64,000 nucleotides of DNA, from positions 79,546,001 through 79,610,000 of the forward strand of contig OZ296651.1 in NCBI GenBank assembly GCA_965655095.1, written 5' to 3'. The notes beneath the pieces were generated by a model that was not told where the DNA came from, did no database searches, and saw only the letters and a program-made list of their open reading frames with translations. The translations under genes and the position numbers were made by a program. Origin of the DNA: Haplodiscus bocki (taxonomy: Eukaryota). Below are positions 42,678-64,000 of the stretch, in pieces (position 1 is the first letter of the stretch; the number at the start of each line of letters is the position of its first letter).

Positions 42678-45082
42678 CTAAAACAAAAAAAGATCTTTAA
42701 TAGTTCCAAGGATTAGCGATTGGAACACGATGCCAGCATGGCAAAAGATCAATCTTCACATGCCTTTTTTCTCTTCAGAAAGCGAGTTACGAAAACAATT
42801 CATATATGGTACAAAAATTCAAACCCCCCAAAAAAACAAAACTAATGTCGAGGGAGGCATTGGCTTTTTGGGTATAGTTGAGCCATATACATTAAAATAT
42901 AGATTATAGATTTCGAAAATGGACTACAGTTTATGAGCAATTACCAAAAGTTTAACCATTTAGTGAGTACGTAAGTAAGTTCTCATGATTAAATTATGAG
43001 CTGGTACAGAGGGTGCAGGCCATTCTGCCTCCGACGTCATCTTTCGGCTTGCCCTCAAATCAGCGATACAGGACAGAATAACTTCTCCGATGCGATAGGC
43101 AATATCCAGACGAAAATTAGTTTTGCTAACTTTGGAAGTTCCACATTTTCTATAAGGTAGTTACGCTAGGCCCGCTAGAGAACTTTGACGATTGGTCAAT
43201 TTTCCCAAAAGTTGACGAGGGAAGCATGTCGTGACTTATCTGGACGAGCAGTCATTGGTGAACATTTTTTTTAAAATAGTTCAGATATACTAAATTATGC
43301 AATATGATCACCTAATCTATAAATTTTGCTTCCACTTGCGATTCATTAGATGTTTTCTCTTTTATATGCGACCGTTATTGACTGTAAGAAGGCTTTCCAG
43401 CGTAGTGACGCTGACCGTCCATACTTGATCAGGACCCTTCAGTGTTATCGGCATGAATATTGGCTTTAGTACGCACGTTACTAGTAACGGAATCCGCAGT
43501 TTTTTCAAGAGGGCTTCAGCCTTTGAAATTGCTGACGATTTTAGAAAAGCTTCGGAACTAATGAACTAAAACGCCTCGGACACTATACATTTCCAATTTG
43601 TGCATCAATATTATTTGATTTATTGTGTCTATCACTTTGCTAAGAACAAGACGCAGAACAGGTTTCACGTTAAATTCGACCGTAATTTCTCCACCGAATT
43701 TCGGGTAATACTGTACCTATTTCCGAACCAAAATAGCTTTTTAATTGGCATTTTACAAAACTGAAAGCCCGGTTATAAGTTGCTGTTTTAAACACTACTA
43801 AGGTTCTACAGAGACTGGTCTAAATTTTTTAATGACGAGCCATTTTGGAACACCGAAGGTATTGCTTTCTTCAGGCAAATTGGAATGTTGAGGACAAGCG
43901 CTATGACTCGGATAGTGTTCAGACACAATGGCATCTTTCTGCCGGGCAGAAGGACACCCAATTTATTTGACATGAAACAAACGAAAGAGCACTTTAGTTA
44001 TCATATCATAGGTTCTAAGTTCGTTATTTTCTCCGAAATCTAATAAAAAAAATCAACAACAATTCAATATTTGACGTATCGTCGAAGGACAGTTCTTTGA
44101 TGACATTGTGAGCTTCAGTTCAAAAAAATGGCAAATCAACATCGAAAAGTTTTGGGAGCAGCGGTGTTGGGAGATATGAATCGGAATGGATTCATACTTA
44201 AAACTTATTACCCAATGCCGAAAAGATTCAAAAATTGAATACTTCTTGTGATTCATGTTGAGCCCCAGAGGCTTGATTCACCAGACAAAAGAACGGAAAT
44301 CAACCACTGAAGACATTAAAAATGGTGGTAAATAAAAATTCGTTACACTGTCGTTCATTCTTTCTCAAATAAGAACCTTGAATATTACTTTGTTCTGTCA
44401 AGGGAAAATGTAGGGCACTAAAAATTTAGATAAGTAAGTGTATCTAAAACGGTAAAGAAAAACTTTGCATAAAACCCACATTTGAATTTGCTGTTTTGTT
44501 CTTCAACGAATTTGAATTTATTCGAAAAAAATTTTATCAATTTATTCGAGAAGTGGAAGTCAATTGTTGTTGTTCCAAGAAGTGGGACTAAAAAAATCTA
44601 AAAAAACGAAATAAAACGTTTTCACAGGACTTTTGAATATGAAGATTCAGGGTATGCGTTTGAAAAGTTGATTTAAAAACATTTCAAAAGTCTATCACGG
44701 GAGTGAACTTCGAAAGTCGCGTACTTAGGGAAAAATGAACAATTTTTAAAACAGGTTATCAAAATTTGATGAAAAAATAAGAAATATCTCCAAGACGAAA
44801 AACGGTTGGGCACTACCATTCTACAGCGTTTCCACTTCGACCAGTAAAAGCGTTTTTTAACAACGAGGAGTTTGATGGAAAAATGTCAATTTTCTCCAAA
44901 ACTGGTGGTCGCATTCAGCTGAGATTACGTATGTCAGTTCACCAGTCGAATTACGTTTGAGCAAAGGGGGGTAACTGAAAACACCATATTGGAATTGAAA
45001 TTCGAATTTTTGCCACAAAAACTGAATCACACAAACACGGCCGCCGTAGCATTTTAGGAAATTGCATTGACAAAAACTTCAC

Positions 45083-45572
45083 AAGTTTCATTATGAGAGG
45101 GATATCAAAAGTCGCGTAAGTTTCATTATGAGAGGGATATCAAAAGTCGCGTAAGTTTCATTATGAGAGGGATATCAAAAGTCGCGTAAGTTTCATTATG
45201 AGAGGGATATCAAAAGTCGCGTAAGTTTCATTATGAGAGGGATATCAAAAGTCGCGTAAGTTTCATTATGAGAGGGATATCAAAAGTCGCGTAAGTTTCA
45301 TTATGAGAGGGATATCAAAAGTCGCGTAAGTTTCATTATGATAGGGATATCAAAAGTCGCGTAAGTTTCATTATGAGAGGGATATCAAAAGCCGCGTAAG
45401 TTTCATTATGAGAGGGATATCAAAATTCGCGTAAGTTTCATTATGAGAAGGATATGAAAAGTCGCGTAAGTTTCATTATGAGAGGGATATCAAAAGTCGC
45501 GTAAGTTTCATTATGAGAGGGATATCAAAATTCGCGTAAGTTTCATTTTGAGAGGGGTATCAAAAGTCGCGT
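45083..45572 (+). repeat. Minisatellite, 14 x 35 bp (AAGTTTCATTATGAGAGGGATATCAAAAGTCGCGT)
   Basis: Head-to-tail units with no spacers. Copies 1-7 and 12 are identical; copies 8-11, 13 and 14 carry 1-2 substitutions. Confidence 0.97.
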
Positions 45573-45872
45573 AGTTCACGCGAAAATCGACAATTTTCGA
45601 AGATAGTTTTTTTCAAAGACTGATCAGAAAAGTGAAGATCAAAAGTTCTCGAGCTGAAAAAGGCCATTCGTACAAGAGGGAAAACGCTAAGGCCTCTAAA
45701 CGAAACCGTTTAGCAATAGTGGTTTTTCAGTTTTAAAACTTTTCCGGAAAAATGAGGATATTAAAATTGACAGTTTTGATCAAAAATGTCAATTTTCTTT
45801 GGTTCTCAAAACTGGTGTATTGGTTTAGTGATCGGATCCACCGTAAATTTGGCGGGTCATTTGTTAAATTAT

Positions 45873-49270: not shown

Positions 49271-51555
49271 ATTATACAGGATGTTCATTGAAGATTAATG
49301 TTGTTCAACAAAGTTCATGATTCATAGGTCATGACACTCCCCACTGTTGAGAGAAAAAAAAACAACCAGCGTCCAGGGCAATGAGCATCATCATCGGCCA
49401 CGAGCTGGGGATGAAAAACATCGTTTGAAAGATGCGAGTAAACCACAATGTCAAAACTCCAGCAGAAAAAATGAAAAATGCAAATACGAAAAGATAAGGA
49501 AGAAGATGAAGTTAAAATTTATCTTGCGGTAGAAAAGGGAAGCATCGGTCAACAGACTTGTAGACAGGATAAAGGGGGCAAGCAAGAAAAACGATTTTTA
49601 TTGGGGGGTACAAGCGAACGGAAAGCAAAATTTTCCGTTTGGACTCTGCATTTTGTTTTGAAAGGTTTTGTGAAACGACTACATGGTCATATTATACAGG
49701 AGTGATACTGAAGAGAAGTAGCCTTGAACTCAAAAAGAGATAATGAAAGGGCGCAAAGAGCAGTTGTTTAAAGGTGAATTCGAGTTTTACAGAACTGCAG
49801 TTTGAGGAAAAAATATTTGCGATGAAGATGATCATGCTTTGAATTGCTGCATGGACGTTCAGATGATCCGACTCCCGGCAGAAAGACGTAAAAAAGTTTC
49901 AAGGAAAATGGATCAGTGTGTCGTGTTGTCCCGATGGCAATTACTTGTTTGAAAATGAGAAAATAACAGCTCGAGCAGGAAGGTTTACCGGGTGCAACGA
50001 TCATGCTGTGCAAGCTGATAAAAAAGAGGCCGCTTAAGCAGTTCAAGAGAAAGGCGGTGGATCAATGAAAGGGTTCAGCATCAAAGGTGCGATGATACTG
50101 AATACTGTTGATCGTAGCGATATGTAGAGTAAGTTATGCAGCCAAGTGCAGTAGAAGTGGCGGAAAAAAAATTGTTCCCGAGCAAAACATCTATACTGTA
50201 CATTTTAGTTTTCTGTTGATTTTAGACTGGCTCTTAAAGTGACATTAACTACATCTCCTTTCAGTCAATTTATTTTTTTAACAAAAGCCAGTAAATTGTT
50301 GTTGCAATTTGGTCCACTTTGATAATTAACTGTATTGAAGGTGATGATGTAACTTCGTGTAGACAGTGTGATAAATTCGTTCAGTATTAAAATTTTTGTT
50401 TTGTACACTACTCGTGTTTTCTTTGAAACGTATTTATATAAAGTGAGGGTATCTGGCAAACTACTCAGGCGCTTCGATGTCAAATTTTCCGATCTCAATC
50501 TTTTCATGATTTCTAGTGTATTGACTTAGAGCGTGTGTTTGCGTGCGGTTAATGGAAATCATTGAGGCTTCGATGTCCGGACCTTGCATAGATCACATCA
50601 CTCAAACGCTTGGGACCCAAAGCACTGACTATATTCTTCCCGACCTCTTGAATGGTCGTGTGAAGTGCTTTGTTAGGGCGTCTAGGTGATGTGTTTGGAC
50701 ATCGACTGTTTTTCAGTCGAATGTGTCAAACGCGCTGAAAAACGTTTAAGTCATTTTCCCGGTAGGATTTTGGTCATCACAGGGGGCGTTACTCTGCCCA
50801 AATTTTTCCCAGTGAGATGAGCCCGTTTTTGGGGTCCAATTGCGAAAAGATGGAAAAAGTCGCAATGTAAAATTTGCCTGGGTTCCAAGAATTTGCAAAT
50901 GTGCATTTTGTTGTTATAAATTTGAAGAGTTAGTAATTCCGAGGTATGTGTCCGAATTAGCCGGAACGTCTGTTGTGGATGGCAGAGCAGAGTTGATGTA
51001 GCGTTGATCGCTTTGAGGACGTGAGCATATTATGTGAGCTTTTTGAAAAATGGGACGATCGGGTGTTCATGCAAATATTCCCAATCTTTGACACGAACAA
51101 CTGCTACAGGTCGGGTTTTGATTTGTAGACCAGGTATTGACAATCTGAAAGGAAAACGTCTATGGACTTTCTGATATTTGCGCAAAAGGTACGTAACGAG
51201 TATATGAGCTGCGATTGAAACAACGAAACTAGTAAAAAACAAATGGGTGGGCCATTCGACTGTCTTTTCAAATTTTGACGAGAACTGCGGATTACAGTGA
51301 GGCATTTGTTATTACTGGATCAGCTATTTTCTCAATCTCTGTCCGAAAATTTGACCCTGCTGGTGTGTCCGGAACCGCACAACACCTACCATTGTCATCC
51401 TCGGCGCTCTTATACTGGCTCTGACTCGACCGTTGTGTAAGGCTGGAGAAGTTGAATCCCTCTTTAACGGACGTCCACTCCGCTGAAAAAATCTGTAAGT
51501 TTTTTCGCACAGGCTTCTTACATGTGCTGTGTTGCTGGGGCTTCTGCTGTGGAAT

Positions 51556-52292
51556 CTTTCGCAGGGCTTTTCCGTGCGCTCTTTCACAAGCGCCTTTTCC
51601 GTGCGATATTCGGCAGGGGCTTTTTCCGTGCGCTCTTTCGCAGGGGCTTTTTCCGTGCGCTCTTTTGCAGGGGCGATTTCCGTGCGCTCTTTCCTGGAGG
51701 GTTTTTCCGTGAGCTCTTTCGCGGGGGCTTTTCCCGTGCGCTGTTTCGCAGGGTTTTTTCCATGCGCTATTCCGCAGGGGTTTTTTCCGTCCAGTATTTC
51801 CCAGGGGCTTTTTTCGTGCGCTCTTTTGAAGGGGCGTTTTCCGTGCGCTCTCTTGCAGGGGTTTTTTCCGTGCGTTCTTTTGCAGGGGCGTTTCCCGTGC
51901 GCTCTTTCGTAGCGGCTTTTCCCGTGCGCTCTTTCGCAGCGGCTTTTTCCGTGATCTTTTTCGCAGGGGCTTTTTCCGTGCGATTTTCTTCGCAAGGGCT
52001 CTTCCGGTGCGCTCTTTCGTGGCGGCTTTTCCCGTGCGCTCTTTCGCAGCGACTTTTTCAGTGCTCTTTTTCCCAGGGGCTTTTTCCGTGCGATTTTTTT
52101 CGCAAGGGCTCTTTCGGTGCGCTCTTTCGTAGCGGCTTTTCCCGTGCGCTCTTACGCAGCGACTTTTTCCGTGCTTTTTCGCAGGGGCTTTTTCGGTGCC
52201 ATGTTTCCCAGGGGCTTTTTCGCTGCGCTGTTTCGCAGGGGCTTTTTCCCTGCGCTATTTTCCGCAAGGGCTCTTTCGGTGCGCTCCTGCCC
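51556..52292 (+). repeat. GC-rich 27-bp tandem array (TTCCGTGCGCTCTTTCGCAGGGGCTTT, about 27 copies), subterminal in the Maverick
   Basis: 27-bp period explains the 9-aa repeats (AKERTEKAP, SVRSFAGAF) in overlapping ORFs; about 110-bp higher-order repeat at 51881-52190. Confidence 0.92.
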
Positions 52293-52333
52293 AGAGAGTT
52301 TCTTTGAAGCTCACTTCCACGGTTGAGTGTTAT

Positions 52334-55300
52334 CTAGGTGAAAGAAAAACACTTCAAAACTTTGTTTTCATAGTTTGCTGAAAAAGGTTTGCATGTTTGG
52401 CGCAAATCCTTTCGTACGATCAAATATAACTCAGTATCACTTGAAATTATTACAACTCTTCTTCTCTTGGGTTGGGAAACATCCAACAGGGAGGGAGACC
52501 TCAGCGGCGAAAGGTCAATTAAGGGACTAGGGTTGATTGTCACATCATATTCTGAATCGAAATCTGGAAGGGAATCTTCTTTAGCTTCGATCTCAATGAA
52601 AGGGTTTCTTTGTCTAGGAGTTGAATATGCCGTTGTTTGTTCATCAAAGTCAGTGACTTCTTCCAGTTCACTTTCGGAGTAATCTCGTTGATGCATTCCA
52701 GGGTCAGGAGGAGTGAATATCTAATCTGAAATTTGTTTCAACTTCATGGTTGCTTCGTTCGCGGTCAGCACCATAGTTTGAAAGCGACGAGACACTGCTA
52801 CCAGGGGAAATTGTGAAGTCCCGGATAAGAGTAGACCAGGTTGGACTAATTTCTGGGTCTTCCTCTCGCTCTTCATCTCCCCAGCCATCGTCTTCCAGGA
52901 TTTCTTTAGGCAATTGCCAGTCTCTCATTTCGAAGTGGCCAAAAGGTAGACAATTTATGCCATCATTTGGTATGAAACGCTTGTCATCAAAAGCACTCAA
53001 TGATATTTTGTTTCGAATGGTTTGGAGGAGATGTTTCGAAGAGTCATTTCGTATGTTATTTGACCTTATGTGGTGACCACTCAGTAGAACACGTTTGTAG
53101 ACATCATGTTACAGTGAAGTTTGAGCGAACCGAGATACGCCTCTTGCTGACATCTTTTGCTGGTTCTCATGAACTATTGAGTATATTTTGGGTTTGAGAC
53201 CAATTAATTCTCGGATGACTTTCCCTGCCATCTCATCTTTGAATTTGAGTGTGACCATCTTGTTTGTGTCACAATGAGGACAGTCGTCCGGATAGTTAGA
53301 AAAGTCGAAGTGGTTTTGTAGCAAGGGGTCGTTTTCTATTTTCTCATAAAAATCCTGTGCTCTGATCTCATAAAATAGCGAGTAAGTGTCGGAATGCAAT
53401 AGTCAGAAGTCGAAGGTCTTCTCCATTACCTGTAATAAAACGTTTTTTATTCGATTGAGACTATTTCAAAAACCCTAGCCTCGGCTTCCGAACGTTTTGT
53501 CGTTGCATCTAGACTATTTTGCTTGGACACCTGATGAATATCGATTCAAACCATATCGGTGGAAAATACACCGGCTCTTCTTTTCGTCTTGGGGGTGAAA
53601 GTAGTGATTCTGATGTCTTATGCTTACCTTGTAATGGAATTCATACATATGGAACTTGGCAAGATCGAGTATGCAAGCGCCCACGAGAGTTGGCGTATCC
53701 CAGTAAATTTGTCCTCGGCGACTTGTAATTGCTACCAGATTTTCATCGAAGATGTTGATTGATTTCAACAAACCCTTATCAGAGTTTTCAAGTACGGCCT
53801 CTCTTCTCTCAACTAGTTTTACGTTTACCCTGTTTCGTTTGCTTTCAAGAGTTTATAAAATAACTCTTCGAACTTACTCTTTGACTGAGTTCGCCTTATG
53901 GTGTCCAAGCTGATGTAGGGCTCCAACCACTTTTCTCGTTTGAACTGTAGGACCCGATGTACTTTAGTAACTTTGAGACCGAGATCCACGTAGAGCTTTA
54001 GGGTAATGTAATGAACGGCGTAATTTCTCTTCGCGAATAATGTCTGTACAAACTTTGGCGTGGTAACACGTCTATTGCATGCTTGATCCAATAGACCCAT
54101 CTGATACTCGGACATATTGCGATCAAAGTTCTCTTTCGTTGGAGCCAGTGGAAAGTCTTTGTGAACATTGTGGAAGGCATCAGGATAGTCCAAGTCGACT
54201 TCTAATACGAAGCCAATTTCCGAGTCGTTTGCGGTCTTAAGAATTAGGCTAAGTTCAACGTCCACGATCTCAAACTCGCGCAAAGGCAGTGGAAATTTTT
54301 GCATGATTCCACCATAAAGATTGTTTGCATCCAGGAGGAAACCATATGTTCTTGCTTTTGTCTCGTCAAATCTTTCCAGGTATTTGTTGTTCATCGTTGC
54401 CAAACGCTTTGAAAACACTGAGGACACACCGCCTCTGATCAAGTTTTCAGCCATCTCCAAATGACTACGGTCCGTAAGCAATTTTACTCCTGCTTTACTA
54501 ACTTTTAGGGAAGCATCGCCAGAAAGATGAGAACATGCGTAATAGTGAGCACTATCCAATCCGTAAGTAGAGTACGTAACTTTTGGAAACTGCTCGACCA
54601 CACATGCAAGTACCAAAGTTTCCGTTGTTAGGTAAAGGTCGTGGTAACTACCGAGGTTTTCGCACCCAAACTTTTGTAAAACTTTTGTTGCATGTTGAAA
54701 GTCATCTGGAGTAATTAACACCTGACCATCTTGGAGAGAGTTCGTCCGTTTTTCTACACTGGGCAAGGATTTTTCCTGAAAACTCTCATGTGAATCGAAA
54801 TAAGAGTAGGGGTAAAAACCCTTTCCATGGAGTAGTTGCAAGTGTTCGGAACAATGTTGAGGAAAGTGATTATCCAATAAACTGAAGTTCTCTGCAGGTA
54901 AGTAACTCAGAAGTTTGACCAGGGATGAGCCCATAAATCTAAAGGAGTCGACGAAACGTAAATATTCATAGACATATTTTTCAACTCCCCGGCGGTCGGT
55001 GTAAGACGCAACTCATACCAATCGGAAGCGAAATGTATTTTTCATCGGTTATAGAAATGACTTGAATCTTGTGGGAAAAGGTGTAGATTTTTGCACATAA
55101 ATTGTAAATCATAATTCGAAAGATTATGACCGAATATCGGAATGCAGTTTACCGTGCGTCGTTTAAGGTTGCATTTACTGTGTGCGGAACCCAAGAACTT
55201 TCCGCTGGCATGACAGTGATCTAAAACTCTTGAGCTTTCAGCTAAATCTCTTACAAATGCAGCACTGATCGGAAGGAAACTGAGGTGATCCTGTGTAATT

Positions 55301-56869
55301 TCGATGTAATTGCCTCATCTCATAAATGTCTTTTGCAAGTTTTTGTAAGTTTTCGACGAACCTTTGCATACAATTAGACGATCTTTGCACTTTGAAAAAG
55401 ACAGGTTCCCGAAAGTTTTCCTCGATAATAAGCCAGCAAAATCAACAAGGATCATGTCTCTGTATAATCTCGCTTGAACTTCTCTCAGAAGTGTTGGAAC
55501 ATTTTGCTACAGGTCTGATGAGCGACTCAAAGTCAAAATACATAACATAGGGTGCCAACCACCTGAACTGGTAATTTTGAAATTGTAGGTTGTTTTTCGT
55601 TTCATCTAGTAGTTTAATAGTGACTGCTTCGATTTGCATTATGTCTCAATATGTATTTCGTGAAATTCAACTGTATAGCAAACATGAAAGCAGTTACCGC
55701 ATATTTTGCTACTGGATCGTCGAACTTGTTGTTTCAAATTGCTGACCAAAATTTTCAACTCTTTGATCAAAACTTAAAGGTAAGCTTGACCATCGCTCAG
55801 AAGAAGAAGGTCTAAAATGAATGGCAATTCCTGTCGTTTCAATATTCGCAGGGGAATTTGATTTTTCTGTTGGTAACGGAATACATTAACTTGACCTTGG
55901 TCAGGTTTTCAAACCTTAGGATTTGGTTGAAAGCCATCGGCAATTCCAAATCGCCAACTGGTTGATGTGTCATTGGATTAGATGGACAATATTTTTCTTG
56001 GTTCTTTCTCATTCGCCAACCGACATTTTCATACACACTCTGAGCATAAGTAGAATGGCACGCTGTCACGTAACAATAGAGGAAGAAGTTGTTAATTTCC
56101 CGATTCCTTATGTTCAACAGGCAATTCATACTTTGAGGGTCACTTAGCAATGCATGGTAGGATGAATCTCGAATGGTAACGTACGGAACTAGTTTAACGT
56201 AAAGACCATTGATATCTTTGAGCATTCACCCACTTCCAGGGCAAGTAAAACTGAACAGACTCGATAACAATTGATGAAACTTCGTGAAAAAAGCGTCCTC
56301 TGTGAGTCTCTCACCGAGATAGACTGTTTCCATTTTGGAGTTCATGTGAATCGTGAGATCAGTGGCATCTTCATCTTCTGAGGCAGGTTTTTCCAATTTT
56401 ACTCTTGCTGATAGCTGCACTTTTTTCGGTTCGGCTTGAACAGCTTCTTCTCTAATCTCATCAATCATTTGCTTTCGGTCTACCATGAACTGTAGGAAAC
56501 CATGATCACCGTTTGCTTCTAAGATGTACGTTTCCACTTACCACAAAAAGCATATGCTTGAGGTAGTTTGCGCTCCGACATTTGGGTTTGTGTAACTGGA
56601 GGCAACGAAAGAACTTGTTGTAAGTGTTTATTGAGAATTTTTGTATCAGAGAAGAGACTGTTGCAGTAAATGCAGAGCTTCTGTTTTGCTGTACCTTGTT
56701 TTTCTTCAACGTGTTTTTTCATTACGGCCAAAGAGTAACTTTTGAAAGGACATTCCATGCAGTTTCTCTGCTGTGACTTCGACGTTTCAAAGTTATGAAT
56801 ATTGCGAAGATGCCGATATAAGTTTTGCTCATTCGCAAATATTTTGCTGCAAAAATAACAGTTCAGCAT
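52334..56869 (-). pseudogene. polB: Maverick protein-primed family B DNA polymerase with N-terminal C2H2 zinc fingers, endonuclease VII-like domain and acidic C-terminal tail; multiply frameshifted
   Basis: Three C2H2 fingers (56519-56869); ExoI YFDFES; VLDHCHASGKFLGSAHSKCNL; HNLSNYD; KGFYPYSY; IRGGVS; LDANNLYG; YKLL.N; SDTYS (degenerate DTDS); KFKDEM..GLKPKIYS; SAFDDKRFI..DGINCLPFGH. Confidence 0.93.
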
Positions 56870-57658
56870 ATTTTCCGCTGCTGAGTTTATTGAACTGAAT
56901 TTGAAAATTTGAGGAATTAAAATTGTTCTCGCGTTTTGTTTACGATGTCTGTTTTGTTGACTAACGCTGCAGGCTAAATGTAAGTCATCTCATCAAATGG
57001 GTAACTATTGAAGAAGTTCTGAGTGTTTATGATAGTGTCTTTTGTCTTGATCTGGAAACAATTACCTCTCGTTCTTTTGTTTGTTCAAAAATAAACTTTT
57101 GCTGATGGCTTTTGCTCTCTTATCACCACTTTTACTATTCTGCATTTCAACTATGACTAGCTTCACACGCGCGATTTCTTTGAAGTTTGTTAATTCTGAT
57201 TTTACTGCCATCCGCTGACTGTAAATTATGCCCGAGTGGTTGCATTTTCTTTTGTTTTAGCGGAGGAAAGACCAATTGGTTTTATAGTATTAATCCTCAA
57301 AACGGAAGTTATTCTAGCTGAGGAATTTAAAAAATGTATAGAAAAAAATTTCTAGGGGAATATCGGAAAATGTAGAAGACAATCATGAATGTTTCTATCA
57401 ATTAACAGATAATTCAGAGTTTGGAAAGATCTGTCTTCACTTCTGGTGAAAATGTGGGACGTGATTCTAACATCTTACTTTTTGGCGCTGGAGGACATTC
57501 AGGAGAGTAGCAAGGCCTTTATTTCACAGGAGTTTCAAGATGAATGAATTCAGTACTGTCCTCATTACTATCTTCAATTGGGGTGTTGGAAATGGAGATG
57601 GCGGCCTTACTTCTTTCAGATGTGGGTATTGCGGTTTGCTAACTATCTGCAAATACGA

Positions 57659-58099
57659 CTATAACGTTTTCAAGTCCGACATATAACCAAACTGGTTCTC
57701 GGAAAGGGGTATATCTTCACAATCGAAACGGAATAAGACTTCGCGAACACTAACAGGTAATTCGCAACGGTCAACGTTTGAACGTAAATGAAAATTTTCC
57801 TCTGCAAGGCCCATATTTCCCAAAATGCTGACAATGTTAGGTGGGACGCTCTTGCTCTTCAACAAACCAACTATGTCTTTAGGTACGGATATGGAATTTT
57901 TGACGCTCCACTCGATCTGATTTCTCTTCTCTGACAGTCGCCACCGATTTATTGAACCAAGTTCCGAAAAAAGTATAACAATAGGAACAAGAAAACAACT
58001 GAAGGTTTGAATCTCTAGTTCCATTCTGTGAAAAATAGCTGTATACAAACTTGAACATTTGAAGTTGGATCTCGTGTAGTATCGAAAGTGTAAAATCAC
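57659..58099 (-). pseudogene. Maverick accessory ORF of unknown function
   Basis: 146-codon ORF co-oriented with the core viral genes; no recognisable motif. Confidence 0.35.
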
Positions 58100-58624
58100 T
58101 GTAAGAAAATTTTATAGAGGCACCCAGTTATCAAATTGACGATTTATTGAAATTTAGCAAGCTATCGAGAAAGGAAAATTAAAATGATGAAAAAGTGAAA
58201 TGGGTTTTTTGTTTACTTTACATGTAATGTCTACTAGACATTAGACATTTTGTTGACATATTGTCCAGACCTTGCAGGTGTAAGTGGTTATAGATTTGTT
58301 TACCTGTCGTAAAACGAATAATGCTTCTGATCTTGTCATTTATTCACAACCAAGGTTTCTGTGTAAACGACATATGAAATTTATAGTAAAACAAGTCCCT
58401 GCACGTTCCTATTTTCAAAGTATTTTGTACTAGTTTTTTTCTCCATTTCTGCCAATTACTATCACTGCTTGTTAACAAAATAGCCGTTCCTTTGTAACTT
58501 TAAAGTTCAAGCCCTTTTCATCAAGCATTCTCTGTCTGGTTTTATTTTAACACCTTGTGTCACTCAACTTTTCACGTTCCCTAGAAAAGAGTTTCCTGCT
58601 CGAAATTGCCTAACTGCTTAAAAA

Positions 58625-58980
58625 ATGAACCGTCCATTCTCTGCCACTACTGACAAAGATTTCGGGGATAGCTGCATCGATATTTCGAGAACTGAGAGGC
58701 GTCTCATACGAGTTACAACGAAAACCTATTCCAACACGGGGACCTACTTGTTTCTGGAACTTTTCGAAAAAGGAGTTGATGATGAGTCTTATCTGGATCA
58801 ACGATTTACACTCACTGCTTGAGTTTCATCAGTTGAGTAACCATAAAGAGAACATTGGAATGCAACCAGGACACGAAGAGGAGGATGTAATTCCAACTAT
58901 CAAGCGAGAGAAGCTATCTAACAAACAATTCTCTAAAATGCCCAGATTATGATTTTCTGGCAGTAACTCTATATAAAATT
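58625..58980 (+). pseudogene. PC4/Sub1-like ssDNA-binding protein (Maverick accessory), frameshifted
   Basis: IDISRTERRLIRVTTKTYSNTGTYLFLELFEK...YLDQRFTLTA/EFHQL follows the PC4 strand-strand-strand-helix pattern. By-eye match only. Confidence 0.5.
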
Positions 58981-58988
58981 TCATTTAA

Positions 58989-59625
58989 ATGTATTTGCCT
59001 GTGAACATACATCTTCCTTCATCAATTCATTCTTTGATGCCAAGAACATTTTTTTCTTTTTGAAACCATAAGTTCAGTCAATGAATGTTACCGAATGTGA
59101 ATTAGTTCTTTTTCAGTAACCGAAAATGGTTGAGGCTATATAGGAATAAACGCCCGAATTTTTCATGAAGCTTCGGAAAAAATTTCGTTATTTGTTTGGA
59201 AGAACCGCGTGTGGGGATAGATTTCGAAAACGACATATTTTGCTTTTGGTTTGCACTCTGAAGAAAGCGAATACTGTGACATTGAGCAAAAACATTATCA
59301 TCTTCTGGAATCAAGCTCCAAATTTCAAAAGCGGGGAAGAAGGTACGCTGTGCCAAGTTTATATTCAACTTTCTCGTTTCTGATACACACTACTAGTTAT
59401 TTAAAGTTAAACGGTGATACAATTGAAAAACTTATTCGAGCTGTATCATAAAACAAGAATCCGGTCAACAGGATCCCATTTTTCAGAAACACCAAACGAA
59501 TCCGCAAACGAGTCCCCGTAAGGAGAAAAGGAAACGAAAAATCAGCACAAACCAGCTACTTGTCTCCGGTTTTTCTCAATAGACTAAACCTGATACTTGA
59601 TGGTAATCATAGAGCCTTAGTTTAA
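58989..59625 (+). pseudogene. Decayed ORF with HUH-endonuclease-like motifs
   Basis: YFAFGLHSEESEYCDIEQKHYHLL and VPSLYSTFSFLIH; one frame runs 59041-59625 with a few stops. Confidence 0.35.
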
Positions 59626-59719
59626 AAAATTTTTGATAATTTTATTTCTGGCTCTGGTACTATAAACAATGAGTTTCTAGCTTTTGAGTCATCCTGTATT
59701 GCAAAAAAAACTCGAAAAC

Positions 59720-60122
59720 TATCCAAAAACCAAAAAACTCGATTAGCGGTATTACAGGGTAGTAACCACTGAAAACAAAGAGCGTTGTATATAGAATAAA
59801 GTCCACATCAGTTCGATGTAGGCGGCTGAAGTGGTTTTTGAATTACTTGTTGACAAATGAAATTTTCATAGGTTAGGCGCTTATTAACTTTCTTGTACTC
59901 ATCCAGGCGTAAGCCAAATAGGTCGCCGAATATGTAGATTCAGCCTTTGTGGCTTATCAAGAGCCTATGATTCCCTTCCTCATCAGAATTTTCGGAGTTC
60001 ACAAAATTGATAGTTGTCATTGAGTGGTATAGGAAATGTGTCTCTGCAGAGAATACCCCCACGAATCTATGTGTCAGGTACCTACACTTCGTAATCTGTA
60101 GTAAAATTGCGGTACTATCCAT
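59720..60122 (-). pseudogene. Adenain-type cysteine protease (Maverick PRO)
   Basis: FVGVFSAE...VNSENSDEEGNH(R)...FGDLFG...LQPPTSN*CGLYSIY in one frame with two stops; His/Asp/Gln-Cys catalytic motifs. Confidence 0.85.
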
Positions 60123-60147
60123 CAACACGCGGTTTCCAGCTTTGTGT

Positions 60148-61439
60148 TCAAAAAAATATTCTTGGAAACCTTCGAGAGGAGACAATGTAGATAGTAGAAG
60201 ACCGTTCACCTAGCAAAATCACTTCTACACTGTTTGTTAGTTGTGCTGAAAACCTTAAGCTAATAGAAATGGATCCATTTGTCAGCTCTGGGTACAGATA
60301 ATTATGGGATGCTTGTTGTGTGCTGACCAGGTTGAACACTAAAAAATAGTGATTAGCATAGTCGTTGTAAGGAACTCAATGACCATGTTGTCCGAAAGCT
60401 AGAGCTTCGAGCGAATTGAGGTAGAGTTTCTTATCACTCTCTGTTTGCAGTGGAGTTCCGCCAACAGGATAACCGTTACGATAAACTGTAATGCTGTTGT
60501 TATTGAATTTTTGGAAAAGGAAAGGATTTGCGCGCTTGGCTCCCAGAAAGGCCTCGTCTGTTGCATAGCTAGTGCAAACCCTCCAATGGGCTCACTAGGG
60601 AATACATCTACGTGACTCCCTTTCTGCACCTCTGTGGAAATCAGAAACGTTTCGGGTATGATCTTAGTATAACATGAAAGAGCAGGTGTTTTGGTTAATG
60701 TGGTCTCAATAGCTGAGTAAACGTTGTCACTAAGTGTCATTTTTCGACCGTATAAACTGGCTTGTATATTCTTGATTTTATATTCGTTTGATTCATCATC
60801 GTAAATTAATGCATATTCAGGTCGGTTTCTGAGGAACAAAATTCTCAGTGTAAATCAACTTTTCAGGAGTTTATCACATGAAAAACAGTCCGACGCAATT
60901 CTTCCAAAGAAAGATATCTCTGCGGACTCCCGAGTTTCAGCTGTCCTTGTAGTGAAAACTGTTTTGGTAAAGTCATCAGGTTGCTCTTCATAAGAATAAC
61001 CCTGACATTTCAACCAGGTATCTTTTGCTTCCTTGTTGTGTGAAAATTCTGTTTCATTGAAAGCTTTTTGACCGTAATTTCCATTAGCAGAAGGAATTTT
61101 GATGCCATTCGCAGTAATACTGCACTCAAAGAAAAGAGAATGTAGCGTATTATTAACAAAGAATGGTGAACCATTTGCCGAAGCATTACCTGCATCGTAT
61201 TCCAGTTTGTCACCATTAGGTATGAGAATCCTACATTTTACTTCGAGATAGATGTTTTGTAATTCGACGAAATTGGTTCGATCTCCAACTACTTCAAACT
61301 TCAGTGTGGCTCCATTTGGAGCATATACTGGACCAGTTTTCTGCTCGAATGATGTATTGGAAGTAATCAAAAGAGGGGGACGCTCGAAAATTTCCATTGA
61401 ACTGTGTGATGCTTGAACAGGTAATACGTTAGGTATCAT
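60148..61439 (-). pseudogene. Major capsid protein (double jelly-roll, hexon-like)
   Basis: SSMEIFERPP...LKFEVVG...VELQNIYLEVKCRI...NNTLHSLF...NYGQKAF.ETEFSHNKEAKDTWLKCQGY; continued in frameshifted ORFs 60399-60839 and 60148-60339. Confidence 0.85.
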
Positions 61440-62365
61440 TGTTTACTCGTGAAAAGAAATTTGACCGCCTTCTCTGTAGCTTCTTTTTTCGTTGACTGTT
61501 TCTTTTCACAGGTTTACTCTTCTTGATTGATGCACTTCCTCCAATTTGATTCTTCACTGTTCTTTTCACAGCTGACTTCGCTGCTTGTTTGGGAGATTTT
61601 TTTTCTCGTGGCAATATCCAACAAATCTGGTAAGCTTTGAACAAGGAAACCATTCTCGAGTATACTAATGACCAAATTGCGGGATTTATCACTGACCAAT
61701 GGCGCAAACGATGGAAAAGAGGGTTTAACAACTCCTTTCTCACGAACCTCACTGCAAGTGTACCAGCATTTAACGATATCTCTCCGATGATATGCGGCGA
61801 CTCATACACAGCTAATAAAATCTGCGAGTTCCTGATTGGCAATTCCCTAAAACTAGCCGACATGAAGTGGAAATTGAGTCTCTGTGCTTCACCGATGTGT
61901 GAATGTGATGAATCGGAAGAAACACCATTTCATTTCTTTTTAAACTGCAAACTACAATCTGCTAACAGACCAAATAACTGTACAAACCTGAACGTCTTTA
62001 ATCAAGACGATTGTATAAAACTGACTACACTCATACTAAGCTCGAAAAACTGGACTGAATAGAATTGTGTGAACTATGGTATCCACGTAGTTCAAATGTT
62101 ATCAAACTGTTCATACTTATAAATGAACAAAATGAAAATGTAAAATATCCTCCCGCAAATTGGGGTTGAAAGAATTTATATATATATATAATTGAACAAC
62201 TAATTCCTTACCTATCGATTTGAAAACTGGTAGAAGTACTTTTTTCGCGAAAGGTAATGCGACCTATCCAACTCCAGCGGCTAAGGATCCTAAACCGCTT
62301 CCTCTCTGTTTTGTGTGGCTCGATAATTGAGGCATGACAGCTTGCCGGGAATATTAAGACTGCAT
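61429..62365 (-). pseudogene. Basic core (pVII-like) protein of the Maverick, interrupted by a LINE fragment
   Basis: After removing 61645-62199 it reads MQS*YSRQAVMP...KQRGSGLGSLAAGVG*VALPFAKKVLLPVFKSIGKELVVQSLPDLLDIATRKK/SPKQAAKSAVKRTVKNQIGGS, followed by a K/R-rich tail. Confidence 0.7.
61645..62191 (+). mobile_element. 5'-truncated non-LTR retrotransposon with 8-bp TSD
   Basis: ORF2 C-terminus with QWRKRW and CCHC knuckle SPMCECDESEETPFHFFLNC, 3' UTR and (TA)n tail. TTGAACAA flanks both sides (61637-61644, 62192-62199). Confidence 0.88.
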
Positions 62366-62367
62366 TT

Positions 62368-63207
62368 TTAGAACCTGCGAAACTTCAGTGTTATCGCAAC
62401 ACGACCGGTTCCAACAAAACGGGACGTAATCTCTAGACACTGCAACTAAATCAAAAATTATTTCCCGGATTGTGTCCAGAATTAGCTTTTTAAACTGCAA
62501 TTCCAGAGATTTGTTTCGTTGCAGACCTGGTTCGTAGGTTACCGTTTGTTAGGCGTCTTTCTGTATCAATGACACGGAAGAGAAGTGCTTTAACTCCAGC
62601 TATGTGCTGGTGTTCAATGATATCACAGTTAACGAAGAAAATGTTGGTTCCTGCTGTAATATCTGCCAGATAATCACCCTTGATTGGTTGTGTTTGCTTC
62701 TTCACCTTGTTTTTGTTACCAAACAAATACCCACCTCGGTTGGGATCCAGCACTCCCTTGAACCTTAATACATCGAATAGACTTCCGTCATGAAGTTTTA
62801 ATCCATAACCATTTGTAAAATTGAAGTCTACACTGTCTTGTTCAATGCTAGAAGTAACAATGAGCCTCGTGCTTTTAGCAACCGCGACATGTAAACGCGT
62901 GACAATATCCTTGACAGTTTGGTATTCACCATCAGGAAAAGTTGCATAGTTTGAACAATCCTCACGTTCCACGATAACGCCTCCTGAGTTTGTCTTGCCT
63001 GTTGATGTTGAAATAATGAATGGAGTTTTCGATGTGTATACGAAGTACATTCTTGATGCTTGTTGGGAAAATTATTTGTGTCAAAGCCACTCTCCAATCT
63101 TCTAGTTGTAAAGGTTCAGCGAGCACGTAGCTGAGCCATGCCATTGTGTTTTGTCGAGAAGTTTCCCTTGAACCGGTTGACTCTAAATATATGTCAAACT
63201 CATCCAT
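62368..63207 (-). pseudogene. Minor capsid (penton-like) protein
   Basis: FDIYLESTGS...QNT...LAEPLQLEDWRVALTQIIFP; DITAGTNIFFVNCDIIEHQHIAGVKALLFRVI; C-terminal GTGRVAITLKFRRF*. Frameshifted. Confidence 0.8.
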
Positions 63208-64000
63208 TTATACCGGGTTTTTGTCAACTCTGGCTCGTAAAAATTTCCTTCAATGTCTTCTCCTTCAGAGTCAACCAGCAAATAAGTGGGTGAGTTGAAG
63301 GTTGCAATTTTAGTAATCTGGAAGACTTCGTCAGTGAAGCGTTGTTTGTACCCTTTTTTGAACGCTACTTCTTCTTTGGCTATTCGAACTCGGTCTCCTG
63401 GCTTCAAGCTTGGTTCACTGACCAGTTTACTCGACTGTTGCGCTATTTGTTAAACCAGGTTTGTTAGATGCTTCGCCGAGACCTTGTTCGGTGCCAATCC
63501 TGGTACGCGGTTGATTCGAGAATTGATTGTCTTAACGAAAGACGGCAATTCGTTTATGTAGCCATAAGGCCATTTGCTCTCCAAACGTTTGTAGATGATG
63601 TTTCTGAGAGATTGAATATTGCGCTCTGCAAATGCCGACTTTGCTTCACGGTTTGTGGTGTAAGTGTCGATGTCTTTGGTTTCACAGAACTTTTTGAAAG
63701 CGCCTTTGAACTCGGTTCCTTTATCAGACCATACTTTCAATGGTTTAGTTTTGGTGATCATGCGACCAAAACATTCAAGTTTCCTCTGCACCCTCAGTTC
63801 GCAATGGCTGAAATCTGAATTTTCGTGACAGTACATCAACAGCGACAAAAGGTATTCAACACCATCGTTGTATTTAGCCAGTTAGTCTACATTAGCCAAC
63901 TCAATAGACCAGATCTCATTGATATCATAAGCAATAACTTGCAAACGGGATAAACGTCTTCTGTATTGTCTGTACTTCGTGAGTTTTTACTGTGTAAGAA
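63183..64000 (-). pseudogene. int: Maverick retroviral-like (rve) integrase, 5' end outside the window
   Basis: INEIWSIELA, KVWSDKGTEFKG, KSAFAERNIQSL, INSRINRVPGLAP, KPGDRVRIAK...FKKGYKQRFTDEVF, IEGNFYEPEL; stops and frameshifts. Confidence 0.92.

Follow-up and report, generated by a model that had tools for sequence, protein, structure and literature searches.

The 64,000-nucleotide stretch of Haplodiscus bocki DNA analysed here (the window) contains part of a decayed Maverick, with the genes for a protease and for the protein-primed polymerase (pPolB) on the - strand. Between these two, on the + strand, lies a broken copy of a small gene for which we predict an HUH/Rep fold, and this gene, together with a hairpin found at one end of related elements, is the subject of this report. 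The copy comprises the following features.

59126..59731, + strand: broken copy of the HUH/Rep-fold gene, about 200 aa, placed by pairwise alignment to the natural uninterrupted copy L003
59221..59451, + strand: open frame of 76 aa, stop to stop, with the motifs that were noticed first
59254..59301, + strand: predicted metal site, His46 (59,254), Cys53 (59,275) and His59-Tyr-His61 (59,293-59,301)
59356..59388, + strand: column 81 and the helix equivalent to the one with the catalytic Tyr of RepB; the residue at 59,377 (column 88) is unconserved

The + strand frame at 59,221-59,451 translates as YFAFGLHSEESEYCDIEQKHYHLL...YAVPSLYSTFSFLIH, just as a preliminary description of this DNA had read an opposite-strand open reading frame (ORF) between protease and pPolB; the span assigned there, 58,989-59,625, gives way to about 59,126-59,731 for the gene. 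Alignment to L003 reveals three frame-shifting deletions (near 59,188, 59,235 and 59,710) and four stops (at 59,141, 59,147, 59,449 and 59,623) in the window copy. The pattern LH-x(9-17)-H[YWF]H-hydrophobic, which was composed after the motif had been seen, occurs once in the window and was present in three of 100 shuffled windows.

A search of the same genome gave 115 candidates, of which 40 were scored (78-90% identical, the window itself aside) and 30 fetched; four of these 30 are intact over 210 codons, with no stop or frameshift. One of the four, the unaltered natural copy L003 (protein P0001), served as query and directly retrieved 23 proteins, with identity down to 35%, while a profile of 10 proteins reached 294 clusters at E<=0.001, 150 of them among the matches listed. 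The family alignment holds 86 of 167 proteins, picked for coverage of the N-terminal domain, and full-length members are mostly 180-230 aa. No named protein was present among the members read in 10 clusters, searches of Pfam, NCBIfam and PDB sequences with the family returned no significant match, and IMG/VR gave no relative. In metagenomes a single 1.1-kb contig carries a family member, here too tail to tail with the protease.

Within subfamily 1, to which the window copy belongs, the ratio of nonsynonymous to synonymous differences (pN/pS) against L003 was 0.22-0.42 (p<0.05) in five of seven pairs, which here as below share one reference and are not independent; the remaining two were L012 (0.64) and the window copy (0.90). 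The other two + frames never reached p<0.05; pN/pS was likewise low in three pairs for the antisense frame sharing third positions, and in one pair for another antisense frame. Subfamily 2, with 33% protein identity to subfamily 1, gave 0.25-0.55, with p<0.05 in 7/8 pairs. At all 11 distinct gene-bearing loci examined, gene and protease are arranged tail to tail, and at the three of them with long flanks the gene is upstream of pPolB; in a third lineage (lineage D) a distant family member immediately precedes that lineage's pPolB. We are thus dealing with an old and syntenic component of the Mavericks studied, under selection and placed near the pPolB start in three lineages. Conservation of the ORF among copies and a dN/dS below 1, which the preliminary description had proposed as checks, are thus borne out; its term relic is not supported.

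The fold proposed in that description is supported by Foldseek, which, given the predicted structure, unprompted placed the pMV158 RepB/Rep_2 initiators (PF01719; PDB 3dkx, 8amu) first in PDB, with an E value that is not significant; all of the top 11 structural rows belong to one superfamily. Profile alignment reproduces the claimed residue register, with the His triad opposite RepB His39, His55 and His57, and F88 opposite the catalytic Tyr. On these models an HUH/Rep fold is predicted for the N-terminal domain. The H-U-H motif and the third metal ligand are present in the family, and conservation is high at H46 (80/85), C53 (84/85), H59 (74/86), H61 (80/86), C81 (80/86; Ser in the window copy) and G100 (79/86). 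One clade has CxxH instead: eight rows replace H59 and gain Cys at position 58, four of these also lose C81, and a quick tree groups the seven of sufficient length on a single branch (SH-aLRT 100). Such a swap of ligands would suit a structural metal site. In P0001 a linker is basic, with 12 K/R against 2 D/E.

What the family does not have is a conserved catalytic tyrosine. Column 88 holds Leu in 28, Tyr in 15, Phe in 13 and His in 8 of 85 family members, and Phe in 22, Ser in 4, Leu in 2, Val in 1 and Tyr in 1 of the 30 genomic copies, which does not fit the suggestion that a tyrosine was lost by a single base change. No Tyr occurs anywhere in residues 82-92 of 22/86 rows, and the highest Tyr count in any column of the domain is 57/86. 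Tyr83 and Tyr86 were considered as a family-wide catalytic residue and rejected, Tyr being found in only 55/86 and 24/85, respectively. All 12 Rep_2 controls carry the catalytic Tyr (16 motif-matching frames, 13 after removal of near-copies, one truncated frame dropped; two were checked in Pfam). Motif III, the tyrosine conserved in active HUH endonucleases, is missing from the family as a conserved feature. No member among the 86 exceeds the 24.6-bit Rep_2 cut-off (PF01719; best E 0.079), whereas the two controls checked score 136 and 149 bits; by Pfam match and by the SPLHD and YLTH motifs the family falls outside Rep_2. As there is neither a Pfam match nor a catalytic Tyr, the gene is not a member of Rep_2, the type of module as which it had first been described.

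The near-invariant cysteine pair and the terminal hairpin were both absent from the preliminary description. In subfamily 1 the integrase-side end carries a perfect palindrome, its arms 96 nt and its loop 5 nt long (z -28), that begins 10 bases inside the AGTAGT terminus and contains 33-bp internal repeats; the other, pPolB-side end has only the 72-bp terminal inverted repeat (TIR). The loop was read in 33 copies, namely 32 near-full-length matches from the top of the terminus listing and the copy of the window's element, and occurs in two reverse-complement forms (21 versus 9, with 3 unclear). Copies about 99.6% identical can differ in loop orientation; placed on a 16-copy tree, loop orientation requires four changes, where shuffled orientations require 5.07 on average (a share of 0.25 requiring as few). 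Among 15 copies, changes in both arms at one pair numbered six (five distinct), against 0.62 expected, with 79 one-arm changes; in the active lineage, one arm has likely served as template for the other. The two loop forms, flip and flop, are cited, in the available text, as evidence for rolling-hairpin replication in adeno-associated virus (AAV; PMC11575299). The flipping loop could also stem from template switching at the palindrome, from recombination between the long arms, or from assembly error. Between the pPolB-side TIR and the outer arm of the hairpin we counted 6-10 differences in 72 positions in five elements and 1-2 in three (L190-L198 against L178-L187), which reflects occasional end-to-end conversion. 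The terminus L054:9000-9322 gave 801 first-look candidates, as against 115 for the gene, at far higher contig depth; the same ends probably cap many non-autonomous elements as well.

The corresponding end of subfamily 2 forms an imperfect hairpin (z between -0.5 and -7.4 over 12 copies; opposite end, -1.1 and 0.1), and its printed sequences read in a single loop orientation, 12/12, flip and flop being confined to subfamily 1. Five further lineages were examined, one copy each. Four of them, including the closest capsid relative (79%), have neither gene nor hairpin, and lineage D has a CxxH-type gene and no hairpin, so that over seven lineages the hairpin accompanies 2/2 HxH genes, 0/1 CxxH genes and 0/4 gene-less elements. 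An association of gene and hairpin is suggestive in this small sample with its one exception, and the stricter proposal that the two always occur together is rejected on account of lineage D. In lineage E a 35-residue, 7.8-bit match inside the element was treated as noise, and in lineage A a real family match lies nearby, outside the TIRs. Lineage D (L245-L248, G000:C9:2,356,501-2,396,500) looks young, as its capsid gene has seven matches whose frames are open over 424 aa; it has a different pPolB and is placed between long inverted flanking repeats.

The remaining features of the element in the window are these.

51335..64000, - strand: portion of the element within the window, with 86-91% identity to related copies L053/L054 outside a tandem array
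52704..56989, - strand: broken pPolB with N-terminal C2H2 fingers
58625..58976, + strand: small upstream ORF of about 115 codons, kept among copies, broken in the window
59739..60122, - strand: protease gene, tail to tail with the HUH-fold gene, named from a motif and position; no Pfam match
60399..61442, - strand: broken major-capsid-like gene, named from size and position; no Pfam match
63183..63881, - strand: fragments of an rve integrase; related copy L054 matches rve (E 1.7e-8)

The window copy itself gives only weak matches for pPolB and rve; in L053 the polymerase matches DNA_pol_B_2 (E 1.5e-14). A packaging ATPase is suggested by Pox_A32 below the cut-off (E 2.9e-4), and the capsid and protease labels, given largely by position, are putative. 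The element runs past base 64,000, its ACTACT end and a partly deleted terminal palindrome (z -9.7) lying about 4.1 kb beyond (L031 4096-4259); its pPolB-side terminus was not found. Eight related elements with both ends have a 72-bp TIR, AGTAGT ends and a 6-bp target-site duplication (TSD), exact in seven and with one mismatch in the eighth; for a ninth element the far end was not found. Going by these sequence features, pPolB and rve together with the TIR, AGTAGT ends and 6-bp TSD, we class the element as a Maverick/Polinton. Between the gene and pPolB there are one small + strand ORF and one - strand ORF. The former (58,625-58,976) is on the strand of the gene and open in many copies, and may be co-expressed with it; a fragment tested had no Pfam match.

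At pPolB residues 574-610 of L053 (L053:4834-8388; about 55,000-55,300 in the window) lies an Endonuclease VII-like stretch (Endonuclease_7, E 3.5e-4, below the Pfam cut-off); HNH insertions in pPolB have been described for nematode Polintons. About 550 bases at 61,645-62,191 are missing from L054 and are likely a later insertion. Beyond pPolB the element includes a 27-bp tandem array (window 51,300-52,300; L053 1,440-3,660) with long open frames on both strands, and outside the matched element a 35-bp array of near-identical units occupies 44,943-45,677. In a subfamily-2 element (L051:2,200-8,200) a segment of pPolB is present twice, zinc fingers included. Pieces of the subfamily-2 gene are arranged in tandem with about 2.7-2.9 kb spacing at G000:C5:359,000-420,000 and G000:C8:5,955,000-5,967,000, a Maverick piece turned satellite.

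With its three metal histidines retained, two cysteines gained and no catalytic tyrosine conserved, the family likely encodes a non-nicking origin-binding protein. Our preferred reading, to which we give about an even chance, is that the window holds a decayed copy of a conserved Maverick gene for a tyrosine-less HUH/Rep-fold protein, stabilised by metal, that binds the hairpin end as an origin without nicking it. The His/Cys set would bind a tetrahedral, Zn-like ion and close the old active site, while the Rep-fold domain and basic linker would bind the 33-bp repeats of the palindrome, which could thus be held open or extruded as pPolB copies the end of the element. Template switching or cruciform cutting, for which the Endonuclease VII-like domain in pPolB is a candidate, might then flip the loop and keep the arms identical.

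Two other readings are each rather unlikely. The protein may be an unorthodox but active nickase or resolvase that cuts the hairpin, its His triad holding a catalytic metal and its nucleophile being Cys81, a histidine, water or a shifted Tyr (83/86), in which case the integrated element would be copied out by a rolling-hairpin step. The relaxase MobM uses a His nucleophile, the triad is near-invariant over rows 20-83% identical to P0001, Cys81 opens the helix on which RepB has its Tyr99, and the loop flips as it does in AAV. This is countered by the want of an invariant Tyr (55-57/86 in the best columns), by a helix without the conserved Lys of the YxxK motif, by the CxxH clade, in which HxH is broken and 4/8 have lost Cys81, and by the 10 terminal bases outside the palindrome, which would be unlike an extended parvovirus end. 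With similarly low probability, an HUH-derived zinc protein may have been reused for transcription control, packaging or single-strand binding beside pPolB, with the hairpin and its flips of separate origin, through recombination or a switch of template from one long perfect arm to the other. Lineage D, the absence of flipping in subfamily 2 and a co-occurrence based on seven lineages fit this reading, as does the template switching described at the circovirus origin palindrome in the available part of PMC2690592; the hairpin at the same end in both HxH-type lineages and its absence from all four gene-less ones speak against it. It is improbable that a small alpha/beta zinc-binding fold without HUH homology has converged on Rep domains, given the single superfamily among the structural rows and sequence motifs that are independently in register. 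The original proposal of a recently captured Rep_2 initiator inactivated at the Tyr codon of the window copy, correct as to motif register, is very improbable in view of Phe in 22 and Tyr in 1 of the 30 copies, the depth, synteny and selection of the family, and a Rep_OBD search of the genome that gave three weak matches, all below the cut-off.

More broadly, we tentatively suggest, as a less than even possibility, that in a lineage of animal-type Mavericks protein-primed replication is coupled to a parvovirus-like hairpin end, for which the element brings a tyrosine-less HUH protein, either a dedicated hairpin binder or a nickase whose nucleophile is Cys or His. To our knowledge, the exit of Mavericks from the chromosome and the start of their replication have been modelled rather than shown; such coupling would explain how an integrated element is copied out, with the flip/flop loop a direct read-out of that step. 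The system offers a candidate protein that is small and folds well, a defined candidate substrate of 197 nt and, in loop orientation and arm-to-arm copying, a footprint that can be counted.

Animal Mavericks/Polintons (adintoviruses) share pPolB, rve, a putative A32-like ATPase, AGTAGT ends, TIRs and 6-bp TSDs with our elements, and in the available text of PMC8097293 an HUH-fold gene and a flipping hairpin are not described. Compared by description, not sequence, the family may correspond to one of the unnamed 'Adintoc' or PM/PW/PZ genes (PMC8502044 section 3.2; PMC8097293, both in part). A term search found no mention of HUH in 10.1101/2023.08.22.554363 and 10.64898/2026.10.13.758929, such a gene is not described in the accessible portions of PMC11161782 and PMC11071296, and our literature search, with partial texts and subscription literature mostly outside it, gave no description of a tyrosine-less HUH gene or flipping hairpin in animal Mavericks. 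Known already, from sources available in part, are active HUH genes in mriyaviruses and some polinton-like viruses (PLVs); palindromes at the termini are likewise known from PLVs and virophages of protists. The palindromes of Halocafeteria virophages and PLVs lie beside TSDs and hairpin priming has been proposed for them; they occur preferentially with non-pPolB replication genes, and flip/flop and an HUH gene go unmentioned in the text at hand (10.64898/2026.07.28.741278). The HUH endonucleases of mriyaviruses and Mriya-like PLVs are likewise stand-alone genes in a double-jelly-roll virus, and some Mriya-like groups carry rve integrases too, as far as the partial texts go (PMC11253617; 10.64898/2026.06.19.733378); these proteins, set apart here by description and not by sequence, keep motif III and are predicted to be active, and mriyaviruses are without a DNA polymerase. 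With AAV our elements share a terminal palindrome with two loop orientations (PMC11575299, in part), but the Maverick palindrome is one-ended, lies 10 bases inside the AGTAGT terminus, and belongs to an integrating double-stranded DNA element of about 19 kb with a 6-bp TSD. RepB, at about 210 aa, with two domains and no helicase (PMC5030251, in part), is alike in build. The origin-binding domains (OBDs) of SV40 large T and papillomavirus E1 are a parallel as inactive HUH domains (PMC13595969, in part). They are fused to a superfamily 3 helicase, whereas the Maverick protein appears to stand alone (a search of 402-2000-aa proteins for longer or fused forms, weak evidence, gave no match), retains its His/Cys site and is encoded alongside a protein-primed polymerase. 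By analogy, it would work like the papovavirus domains yet is not one of them; it adds a widespread, unannotated offshoot of HUH proteins, with metal histidines kept and the tyrosine lost, and a separate case of Rep domestication alongside the papovavirus OBDs.
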